From: a virus
IMG/VR virus record: IMGVR_UViG_3300025738_000002
Strand: one strand, 5' to 3'
Length of the DNA: 52,836 bases
Positions 42,172-43,764 of the stretch are shown piece after piece. Positions within the stretch are counted from its first letter, which is position 1; each line of letters starts with the position of its first letter. Position numbers and translations under genes: made by a program. The notes under the pieces were generated by a model. It saw only the letters and a program-made list of their open reading frames with translations, was not told the DNA's origin and did not search any database.

Positions 42172-42684
42172 ATGAAAAGAAATTCAGGTTTTACATTAAT
42201 AGAATTAGTAATCGTAATTATAGTTTTAGGCATCTTGTCAGCAACGGCAGTGCCTAAGTTTATAAACCTTCAAGATGACGCTAAAAACGCGGTCCTACAT
42301 GGCATTAGCGGTGCAGTAAATAGCGCTATGGATATTTCATATACCAAGCTAGCTATTAATGGTTTAGAACATAAAGCAAGTGTGAACGTTATCAATACTC
42401 CCTCCCTAGCTGAATGGTGTCAGGGTTGTTCGTTTAGCTATGGCTACCCTGACGGCCTTGACTCTTGGTCATCTATTATAGAAGGCATTAATAGAGCGGA
42501 TCAGCAAGCAGACGTTATCAATGGCAAGGGCTTGGTGTTCGGTAGTGGCGGGTCTGGCATCGTATTTACAATGCAAGGTAACTATATCGGTAATTCATTA
42601 AAATCTGATAACTGCTACGTCGAGTACATCAAATCTGACAGCTCGACTGAGCGCCCTATTGTTAACGTAGTAGAGTGCAAGTAA
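42172..42684 (+). CDS. Type IV pilin, MshA-like (prepilin leader plus N-methylation motif)
   Basis: MKRNSG/FTLIELVIVIIVLGILSATAVPKFINLQDDA. Gly-Phe cleavage site, Glu5, and a C-terminal Cys pair (NCYVEY...VECK). Confidence 0.85.
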   Translation: MKRNSGFTLIELVIVIIVLGILSATAVPKFINLQDDAKNAVLHGISGAVNSAMDISYTKLAINGLEHKASVNVINTPSLAEWCQGCSFSYGYPDGLDSWSSIIEGINRADQQADVINGKGLVFGSGGSGIVFTMQGNYIGNSLKSDNCYVEYIKSDSSTERPIVNVVECK

Positions 42685-42941
42685 TGATGAATCCTGAATT
42701 TGTAGAGTTCTTAAAAGACAATACCTATTTCAACATCGTACACCATGAAGAAACTGACACGTATAGCTGTTTGTTCAACTTAATGTACACCACTGCTATC
42801 TTGCATGATTTAGATGGCTGTGGTTGCGGTGCGCGTTTCTGCTTTGAAGATCCAGAGCTTGCCAAGTCAGAGCTGGAAAAATGGTTTTCTAACGACTTCG
42901 CTGATGATTGCGAACCTACTGGGTGGATAGCTAGACGATGA
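42684..42941 (+). CDS. Hypothetical protein, coupled to the pilin gene (TAATG overlap)
   Basis: ORF-track frame. I recognise no domain. Confidence 0.5.
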   Translation: MMNPEFVEFLKDNTYFNIVHHEETDTYSCLFNLMYTTAILHDLDGCGCGARFCFEDPELAKSELEKWFSNDFADDCEPTGWIARR

Positions 42942-43243
42942 TAAAATTAAAGCAGCTTAAGTACGCATCAAATTGCATAAATCGATGCAAGTCCCTTTTT
43001 GAGGATAAAGAACACGCCGGAATATGTGCAGGTATACATTATGCTTTCAAGTCCGGCCTTGAAGTAAAAAAAAGTAATGTGAGCATCATCGTCTTAGCGT
43101 TAACTCATCGCAGACTTAAATTTAAAGAATTAGAATTTAGGTCAGAGGAGCAGGTTCAGTTTATGGCTGACGCACGATATCTAGTGTCCATGTTCGACTC
43201 TGGTATTGCTTACGATAAACAACATGGAAGAGTGAACAAGTGA
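42938..43243 (+). CDS. Hypothetical protein (ATGA-coupled)
   Basis: ORF-track frame. I recognise no domain. Confidence 0.5.
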   Translation: MIKLKQLKYASNCINRCKSLFEDKEHAGICAGIHYAFKSGLEVKKSNVSIIVLALTHRRLKFKELEFRSEEQVQFMADARYLVSMFDSGIAYDKQHGRVNK

Positions 43244-43539
43244 GCATATTATACCCATTAGGTTTACAGCTACTTTCAGGTGGTGATGCTACATTTACCC
43301 GTTCAAGAGCGCTGTTAATGTTTCATGCGTCAGGTGTGGCAAAGCATTGGAAACCGGAAGATATAACGGTGCAAGTAACGAACACTAAAACGGGCGCAAA
43401 TGTAACCATTGCTTACAATGATAAAACATTAGGCAAGCCCGTTTTTAGTTATGATTTTGCACCAAGCATGTATTGCGAATATATATTCGACTGGTTTGCT
43501 CACGACAACGAGTTATACCCGCAAGCTATCGAATGGTGA
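43240..43539 (+). CDS. Hypothetical protein (GTGA-coupled)
   Basis: ORF-track frame. I recognise no domain. Confidence 0.5.
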   Translation: MSILYPLGLQLLSGGDATFTRSRALLMFHASGVAKHWKPEDITVQVTNTKTGANVTIAYNDKTLGKPVFSYDFAPSMYCEYIFDWFAHDNELYPQAIEW

Positions 43540-43542
43540 TGC

Positions 43543-43764
43543 ATGAAGCCTAAAGACCTAGAGATCGAGCTGTTAAACCTAAAGATTGATACGCTTGAAT
43601 TACAACTTAAAAACTCTGATAAAGTTAATGGATACCTTAACTTGATCAATCAAGAACTAGGATGCCATTTAAAACTGAATACTAAAATAATGCTTTCTGC
43701 AGGTCTATTTATAGCAGTGGTATGCATTATCGTTATCGGTGCTAGTTATAGCCATATTCATTAG
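43543..43764 (+). CDS. Tail-anchored membrane protein (coiled coil plus C-terminal TM; holin or spanin-like candidate)
   Basis: LEIELLNLKIDTLELQLK coiled coil and the IMLSAGLFIAVVCIIVIGASY TM segment. Confidence 0.5.
   Translation: MKPKDLEIELLNLKIDTLELQLKNSDKVNGYLNLINQELGCHLKLNTKIMLSAGLFIAVVCIIVIGASYSHIH

Follow-up and report, generated by a model that had tools for sequence, protein, structure and literature searches.

An MshA-like type IV pilin gene and its host-type upstream element in the genome of a phage with a probable Moritella host

We analysed a viral DNA stretch of 52,836 nucleotides (nt) (IMG/VR record IMGVR_UViG_3300025738_000002; the whole stretch is called the window below) and concentrated on positions 42172 to 43764, where five closely packed open reading frames (ORFs) lie on the plus strand and the first encodes a prepilin resembling MshA, the major subunit of MSHA-type pili. 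A preliminary description of the letters had presented this segment as a pilin gene heading an operon of five translationally coupled genes; all five ORFs are found at these positions, as are the TAATG, ATGA and GTGA overlaps that join them. The pilin gene, the elements ahead of it and the preceding phage gene are the following.

42172-42684, plus strand: prepilin gene, 170 amino acids (aa); six-residue leader (42172-42189), MshA-type alpha1 helix, head with four cysteines (four-Cys).
42158-42163, plus strand: Shine-Dalgarno-like AGGGGA, read from the sequence, 8 nt ahead of the pilin ATG.
42134-42143, plus strand: box TGTTACCATG, extended -10-like (TG-n-TACCAT), a single match in the window versus 0.31 expected.
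42099-42116, plus strand: inverted repeat GTGTCCGGTTCGTGACAT, a single match in the window versus 0.11 expected.
41736-42113, plus strand: zf2, a zinc-ribbon gene of the phage backbone (phrog_30859, E = 4.6e-21) with a chimeric 3' end.

The prepilin signature noticed in the preliminary description is borne out: a short basic leader ending in glycine (MKRNSG) precedes F1-T-L-I-E5, as read from the sequence, hydrophobicity on the Kyte-Doolittle scale peaks at 2.77 in the helix (residues 9-27), and the protein scores above cut-off against both Pfam PF07963 (N_methyl; 33.6 bits, cut-off 21.2) and TIGR02532 (28.6 bits, cut-off 16.3). The search of pilin families that had been proposed thus returned matches above cut-off, with MshA closest. 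An AlphaFold (AF2) model (pLDDT 83, pTM 0.72) has the lollipop shape of pilins, in which a helix over residues 9-62 leads into a beta-sheet, and a Foldseek comparison of this model with the PDB gave a single significant match, 9lab_B from the electron cryo-microscopy structure of the Shewanella oneidensis MshA pilus (E = 7e-5), with a TM-score of 0.55-0.60 and an alignment that spans the full length. Similarly, when a profile built from the pilin with its homologues was compared with PDB sequences, 9lab MshA came first (E = 4.6e-29; runner-up 1.8e-14). Full-length homologues reach down to E = 3.6e-50, which places the assignment as a pilin far beyond chance, and the PHROGs 'pilin' family is matched over the N-terminus (E = 8e-12).

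The closeness of the N-terminus to MSHA-type major pilins, noted in the preliminary description, was also confirmed: 36 of residues 1-38 are identical to operon-type Moritella MshA (P0040/41/46/47), mature residues 1-32 agree at 31 of 32 positions with operon-encoded Moritella MshA, and the first 114 nt of the gene are 86% identical to M. yayanosii mshA. The msh locus of M. yayanosii (L088) comprises the MshH-to-MshG genes, MshA, three further prepilin-type genes, a PilX-like gene and MshQ. The phage pilin matched MshA of this locus at E = 9e-33 over 159 aa; of the other four pilus proteins, three were matched at their N-terminal 19-31 residues only and the fifth not at all. As these scores favour MshA, we rejected a reading as a minor pilin. 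We also rejected GspG, the major pseudopilin of the type II secretion system, for which TIGR01710 gave 35.5 bits versus a cut-off of 88.85, over the N-terminus only; the name 'type II secretion system protein' carried by some homologues is a generic label.

The head of the phage pilin has other relatives. With residues 61-170 as the query, the canonical Moritella MshA proteins (P0040/41/46/47) were not matched at E<=1e-3, and only a clade of four-Cys pilins was found, to which the phage head belongs by its C83-x-x-C86, C148 and C169 and its CxxCxFxYGYP motif; operon-encoded Moritella MshA has two cysteines versus these four. Cys148 and Cys169, the candidate C-terminal disulfide pair, do not vary within the clade and lie on either side of the last two strands predicted in the model, and the Cys83-x-x-Cys86 pair is a second conserved pair that the preliminary description had not mentioned. 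Judged by its sequence, the product is a type IV pilin of the major type, MshA-like and carried by a phage; its gene lies outside any msh operon, between zf2 and the backbone gene orf2 of the phage. The identical protein is recorded on 8 contigs in the database, and an exact-protein look-up gave no record for the window pilin.

That the gene is an insertion follows from comparison with two related phages. One, from Moritella sp. PE36 (L085 = L087; primase 79% identical), is a contig of 50.7 kb, and the other a contig of 52,719 bp (L086, NVVV01000064.1; primase 86% and large terminase, TerL, 92% identical) binned in a North Pond metagenome-assembled genome (MAG). Both share the backbone, in the order primase, two small genes, tRNA gene(s), zf1, zf2, orf2, tail-anchored protein(s), terminator and a DUF5675 gene, and neither carries the pilin within the syntenic 22.8 kb around its primase. 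In PE36, orf2 (72% identical) starts 17 nt past zf2, and in L086 the gap between zf2 and orf2 is filled by a different gene of 107 aa (15140-15463), distantly like orf4 of the window (35% identity over 51 aa, E = 2e-7). DNA similarity to both relatives resumes exactly at 42683/42684, where the pilin stop meets the orf2 start, and is lost again over 42942-43768, which covers orf3 to orf5. The interval between zf2 and orf2 thus appears to be a slot for variable cargo. L086 is a near-complete relative of the window phage that was deposited in the MAG of an alphaproteobacterium, Robiginitomaculum sp. NORP54. In view of the other relative, which comes from Moritella sp. PE36, this contig was probably mis-binned.

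On the upstream side, the window is unique from about 42087-42090 to the pilin ATG when set against PE36 and L086, which share the same zf2 end and ribosome-binding-site junction. The zf2 protein of the window is 45% identical to zf2 of L085/L086, and the alignment diverges past ...GGTATGCC, at about 42087-42090, the zf2 proteins of the relatives ending in ...RLYRSVLLNMSA and a stop. The last ~8 codons of zf2 (PSIPVSGS) and its stop are located in DNA that was acquired with the pilin, some 85 bp of bacterial upstream DNA having come along with the gene. Since the inverted repeat overlaps the zf2 stop, the recombination joint must lie inside the 3' end of zf2, which accounts for the unique C-terminus PSIPVSGS. 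The captured unit would thus measure about 595 bp (about 42090-42684) and consist of a putative promoter/operator, a ribosome-binding site and the coding sequence, ending exactly at the stop codon. Taken jointly, the identity of the pilin and its insertion are very probable.

The same two upstream elements stand ahead of bacterial pilin genes, at these distances from the pilin ATG.

Window: inverted repeat at -73, box at -38.
L001: inverted repeat at -73, box at -38.
L004 (Moritella sp. 24): inverted repeat at -69, box at -34.
L099: inverted repeat at -72, box at -37.
L089: inverted repeat at -86, box absent.

Wherever both occur (L001-3, L004, L099 and the window), the start of the box follows the start of the repeat at a constant offset of 35 nt. 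A composite pattern derived from the bacterial copies, TGTCCG-N6-GACA-N18-TGTTAYCAT, has one match in the window, at 42100-42142, and none in 100 shuffles, even with one mismatch allowed; across about 1 Mb of sequence in 99 fetched loci, all its matches precede orphan pilin genes, that is, pilin genes outside msh operons, and it was absent from the IMG/VR scan. Only a subset of the four-Cys orphan genes carries the element, which is not present upstream of operon-type mshA (L088), of a two-Cys orphan (L094) or of five other four-Cys members. We interpret the box as an extended -10 element, TG-n-TAYCAT, and hence as a predicted promoter, and the inverted repeat is a candidate operator for a dimeric host regulator. 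With a transcription start about 7 nt past the box, the centre of the palindrome would fall at about -41.5, a position that would suit either an activator site of class II or an operator that overlaps the -35 region.

A second half-site arrangement of the type TGTCM-N6-KGACA, as in the pilin operator, occurs at 44403-44418 within the palindrome TATATGTCC-CATACC-GGACATATA (44399-44422). This pattern has two matches in the window versus 0.15 expected; given the first, the second alone has p ~0.14. The palindrome is also flagged as terminator-like and marks the left edge of a segment (~44399-45404) for which neither L085 nor L086 has an equivalent.

Full-length homologues from the four-Cys clade show 45-55% identity to the phage pilin. 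Of its 120 best homologues, 24 have four cysteines and 86 have two. We viewed the genomic context of nine four-Cys members (P0002, P0006, P0008, P0010, P0011, P0015, P0017, P0018 and P0019), of which P0010 is the pilin of Moritella sp. 24 (CP056123.1). All loci with called neighbours hold a single orphan pilin gene amid ordinary chromosomal, metabolic genes of Moritella/Psychromonas type, and none of them is an msh operon or a prophage. Moritella sp. 24 has further orphan MshA-like pilins of the two-Cys type (L004 and L094 are CP056123.1 loci). Several scattered orphan MshA-like pilin genes per genome are thus seen in Moritella-type bacteria, and the role of these paralogues is apparently unstudied.

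Downstream of the pilin, the unit continues as follows.

42684-42941, plus strand: orf2, 85 aa, soluble; phage backbone gene of the phrog_24748 family.
42938-43243, plus strand: orf3, 101 aa, soluble; an ORFan of no family, entered by an ATGA overlap.
43240-43539, plus strand: orf4, 99 aa, soluble; an ORFan in a word-indexed search, entered by a GTGA overlap.
43543-43764, plus strand: orf5, 73 aa, starting 3 nt past the orf4 stop; helical N-terminal part and C-terminal transmembrane anchor.
43784-43807, plus strand: intrinsic terminator with a 10-bp stem and a T-run, closing the unit.
43830-44252 (ORF listed from 43812): DUF5675 protein (Pfam E = 2e-25, phrog_1501) with a HSGNTVEDTTGC motif.

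The orf2 start is ATG 42684 or 42687 (MMNPEF...), the former overlapping the pilin stop as TAATG; as homologues begin MINPEFVEFL, the mechanically listed GTG at 42675 is not the start. The protein is 70-72% identical in the pilin-less relatives, is modelled as an alpha/beta fold (pLDDT 94) and belongs to a family of 63 representative clusters, in which 15 of 26 members match phrog_24748 (function unknown); the family was not seen beside a pilin in the loci examined, and its alignment as a whole is too varied to serve in pattern scans. Neither orf2 nor the primase found a match when used to scan metagenomes. For orf3 and orf4, no homologues beyond themselves were found among 5.8 billion protein clusters. 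The preliminary description had recognised the last ORF as tail-anchored, and orf5 indeed has a predicted C-terminal transmembrane segment (residues 49-67, Kyte-Doolittle 2.83); sequence relatives of orf5 were not found, and its layout recurs at the same place in the pilin-less phages (PE36_TA1/TA2 and L086_TA1/TA2). PADLOC returned no defence-family match for any protein of the locus.

The first terminator found past the pilin is that at 43784-43807, none being found between the pilin and orf2, and the PE36 element has an equivalent hairpin at the same place (L085, aaaggctatccctaatcggatagccttttttt). The five ORFs can therefore form one predicted transcription unit, from the element at 42099-42143 to this terminator. 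The operon of the preliminary description stands in this respect, in its tight packing and possible single transcript, and fails in casting the four downstream ORFs as partners of the pilin: because orf2 and orf5-like proteins are present in relatives without a pilin, the downstream ORFs are best read as phage backbone and ORFan genes that merely share the transcript. ATGA-type overlaps also join backbone genes of the relatives, so the coupling is probably ordinary phage gene packing.

On structural grounds, DUF5675 is placed with the C82 (YkuD-type) peptidases, as a candidate lysin, in a 2026 preprint; a probable lysis gene would accordingly lie a short way downstream of the pilin locus. Because the DUF5675 gene comes after small tail-anchored proteins and a terminator in each of the three related phages, the whole may constitute an unconventional lysis cassette.

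Upstream, zf1 and zf2 (41326-42113) are tandem paralogous zinc-ribbon genes (phrog_30859) with a CxxC...CxxC arrangement and weak Stc1/endonuclease VII-like matches, and the PE36 element has three zf copies (L085 13733-15537). Three tRNA genes lie at 40660-41197, just past a good sigma-70-like promoter, TTGACG-17-TACTAT (40620-40648). The first of them (82 nt; Rfam tRNA 49.8 bits) is called 'tRNA-Stop' with anticodon TTA by ARAGORN and is a possible ochre suppressor; L085 and L086 are without it, both having a tRNA-Met gene and L086 also a tRNA-Phe(aaa) gene.

The window as a whole carries an exact direct repeat of 127 bp at its ends (1-127 and 52710-52836), which indicates a circular assembly and a complete genome of ~52.7 kb. 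It encodes structural proteins (capsid/major head protein, tape measure, J-like tail protein and TerL) and replication proteins (helicase, Sak4-like annealing protein, single-stranded DNA-binding protein and exonuclease), and the following genes bear on its lifestyle.

28172-28870, minus strand: ParA-like partition gene.
31377-32888, plus strand: large serine-recombinase-like gene with Recombinase and Zn-ribbon domains.
36989-39856, plus strand: RepA-primase related to the N15/VP882/phiHAP-1 type and to plasmid CyRepA1 replication proteins.

From the structural genes and the ParA-like, serine-recombinase-like and N15-type RepA genes, the window phage is predicted to be a siphovirus-type temperate phage, which may be kept as a plasmid prophage; a resolvase-domain match was not found in the serine-recombinase-like protein, and the PE36 relative is a separate 50.7-kb contig. 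The host is probably the deep-sea bacterium Moritella, given the relative in Moritella sp. PE36 and the likeness to Moritella pilins. A megablast search with window positions 41000-46000 found no close relative among GenBank phages. Adjoining the recombinase gene, a 344-aa protein (30249-31283) has an H-NS N-terminal dimerisation domain (Pfam E = 3e-7) and may be a phage-encoded H-NS-like silencer. Two very large ORFs (18316-20334, 672 aa; 20740-25647, 1635 aa) lie between the tail genes and the lysogeny/partition module, and neither matched Pfam or PHROG.

We then surveyed phages for similar genes. Our literature search turned up no account of a phage with an MSHA-type pilin, and tblastn found no homologous pilin gene in GenBank phages; relaxing the threshold to E<=5 brought up no more than a GspG-like gene from an Acinetobacter 'phage' record. 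A scan of IMG/VR with the single pilin protein gave no match. An alignment-based scan yielded 196 tblastn-confirmed pilin-like N-termini, some of them in host flanks; none of these 196 was a full-length relative, and among the 84 loci fetched by then, 80 of which were pilin-bearing IMG/VR contigs, none shared other window genes or held relatives of orf2 to orf5. The two best IMG/VR loci (L005 and L006) were rejected as phage cases, as they look like host or island flanks. L007 7358-8426 (IMGVR_UViG_3300020439_001829) belongs to a true marine phage with ThyX and other phage genes, in which two pilin-like genes that are not related to the MshA clade lie side by side. Uncultivated marine phages may thus carry pilin genes fairly often.

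Phages that encode pilins are already known, from the PHROGs 'pilin' family and from a mechanism published for a minor pilin: FimU-like minor pilins (P-FimU) of prophages in P. aeruginosa, from F10-like phages, are incorporated into pili and block phages that bind the pilus tip (Sztanko et al., Cell Rep 2026, PMC12952977). PilA-like genes (P-PilA) were reported in Xylella fastidiosa prophages and in four GenBank phage groups, and the same role was suggested for them (PMC12952977). In Vibrio, MSHA pili are phage receptors, and resistance maps to msh genes (PMC9532999). As with P-FimU and P-PilA, the window presents a tailed phage with a homologue of a host type IV pilus subunit in which the assembly helix is host-like and the exposed part divergent, and as with P-FimU the proposed benefit is blocked adsorption of pilus-dependent phages. 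Unlike P-FimU, the window pilin is of the MSHA type, which PMC12952977 does not mention, and is predicted to be a major shaft pilin rather than a minor pilin of the tip; the two also differ in the four-Cys orphan-clade head, the putative bacterial promoter/operator cassette and the cold/deep-sea host of Moritella type on the side of the window.

With MshA of Vibrio, Shewanella and Moritella, the window pilin shares leader length, the cleavage site between G and FTLIE, alpha1 including PKFINLQDDA, the fold and the C-terminal Cys pair; it differs in its position outside the msh operon, in a head sequence not detectably similar to Moritella MshA, in the extra CxxC pair and in an upstream region without any similarity to that of the operon gene. 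With the orphan pilins (P0002, P0010) it shares full-length homology, the four cysteines, CxxCxFxYGYP, and the upstream repeat and extended -10 element at the same offsets, whereas these are single chromosomal genes amid metabolic genes and the window gene lies in a phage with its stop fused to a phage gene. Morons, such as HK97 gp15-type elements, are extra genes present in one phage and absent in close relatives. The window pilin resembles them in being missing at the syntenic site in relatives, in having its own promoter-like element and in probably benefiting the host, and is unlike them in using the backbone terminator past orf5 and in a base composition that is not deviant.

We propose that the orphan MshA-like pilin genes on the chromosomes of Moritella-type bacteria form the pool from which the phage captured the ~595-bp cassette, and that pilin transcripts would have two sources, the host-type promoter of the cassette itself and read-through from phage transcription that begins further upstream. 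The prepilin would enter the inner membrane, where the host prepilin peptidase would cut off MKRNSG and methylate Phe1, and the MSHA assembly machine would accept the subunit because its mature alpha1-N is 31/32 identical to that of operon-encoded Moritella MshA. The subunit would then co-polymerise into MSHA pili and show a different, four-Cys head on the shaft. We infer that processing, incorporation and a benefit follow in this manner: adsorption of pilus-binding phages would be reduced, be they competitors or the phage's own progeny on infected cells, and a changed specificity of surface adhesion would be a possible side effect. Adsorption interference is favoured as the likeliest benefit because of the precedent of the prophage FimU-like pilins (PMC12952977). 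To the explanation as a whole, a moron of host origin with its own promoter that alters the surface of MSHA pili by supplying them with a subunit, we assign a probability of roughly 0.45; superinfection exclusion by pilus remodelling is a tentative proposal, with odds somewhat short of even.

Several observations weigh against this explanation. A generic sigma-70 scan called no promoter in 42114-42171, a negative that we take to be overridden by the conserved operator and extended -10 element, and we deduce the pilin promoter from the conservation and geometry of the element only. The nearest known homologue, P0002 (JGI contig HuiMet_100056), is only 55% identical, so the capture is not recent or the donor is unsampled, and the base composition of the gene is not deviant (GC content 0.409, and 0.398 at third codon positions, GC3, versus 0.424 for the window). 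The orphan pilins have no demonstrated role in MSHA pili. Finally, the pilin sits in a lytic-side gene block beside a probable lysin, not beside the lysogeny module.

An alternative benefit, compatible with the proposed moron and rather unlikely to be the principal one, is lysogenic conversion, in which the alternative head would change MSHA adhesion to particles, chitin or biofilm partners to the advantage of the lysogen. Four-Cys orphan pilins are maintained outside any phage in many Moritella/Psychromonas-type genomes, which points to a cellular and probably adhesive role; moreover, the phage copy retains the host-type cis-element, and MSHA pili mediate surface attachment (PMC7096442). By contrast, the phage-encoded pilins that have been tested in print act in phage defence (PMC12952977).

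We consider it distinctly unlikely that the pilin acts as a 'poison', a foreign or extra major subunit that upsets the pilin pool or stoichiometry, blocks or slows MSHA assembly or dynamics and leaves cells de-piliated. With its near-identical alpha1-N, the phage pilin would be a competitor for access to the shared peptidase and platform, inhibition of assembly was considered for truncated phage PilA-like proteins (PMC12952977), and according to a 2026 study the ratio of minor to major pilin regulates the dynamics of competence pili (PMC13249403). However, the phage pilin is full length and confidently folded, its clade is conserved in chromosomes, and its four cysteines and YGYP are intact, as expected of a subunit that assembles and not of a poison.

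It is more improbable still that the gene is a mere passenger, host DNA captured by chance with no selected phage function. Its presence in one of the three known members of the lineage and the failure to find a homologous cassette in IMG/VR or GenBank phages would agree with this, whereas the intact ORF, the trimming of the cassette to promoter and coding sequence, the fusion of its stop to the orf2 start (TAATG), the exact positions of operator and -10 element despite only 55% protein identity to the nearest relative, and the recurrence of the identical protein on eight contigs all argue for selection. A dedicated pilus-related module of five proteins, as the preliminary description had it, can be dismissed as very improbable and is largely refuted by synteny: tight packing, overlapping stop and start codons and a promoter-like element and terminator that bracket all five genes speak for it, but orf2 and orf5-type genes with the same ATGA-type overlaps occur in pilin-less relatives, orf2 belongs to a widespread family of small phage proteins with no pilin neighbour in the loci examined, orf3 and orf4 are ORFans, and relatives of orf2 to orf5 were in none of the 84 loci.

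The pilin cassette overturns no existing view. Pilus subunits of phages as a defence by surface replacement have been demonstrated only recently (P-FimU, 2026), and their major-pilin versions have so far merely been listed; the locus adds an MSHA-type example from a cold/deep-sea host, with an insertion that is defined to the base pair through two pilin-less relatives. The co-transferred bacterial promoter/operator, a 43-bp element with a putative regulator, offers a handle on when such genes are expressed, and the locus draws attention to the unstudied four-Cys pilins of MshA-like type that Moritella and related genera encode in orphan genes. An extension of the proposed moron, speculative and on the whole unlikely, is that Moritella-type bacteria may keep a set of orphan, alternative major pilins of the MSHA type under one shared regulator with a TGTCC-N6-GGACA-type operator as its binding site, a switchable 'wardrobe' of shafts from which the phage would have stolen one unit with its promoter, such that a host signal would time the re-coating of MSHA pili in the lysogen and exclude shaft-binding phages. 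If true, this would be the first MSHA-type and the first host-regulated pilin replacement by a phage, and it would tie the expansion of pilin paralogues directly to phage pressure.

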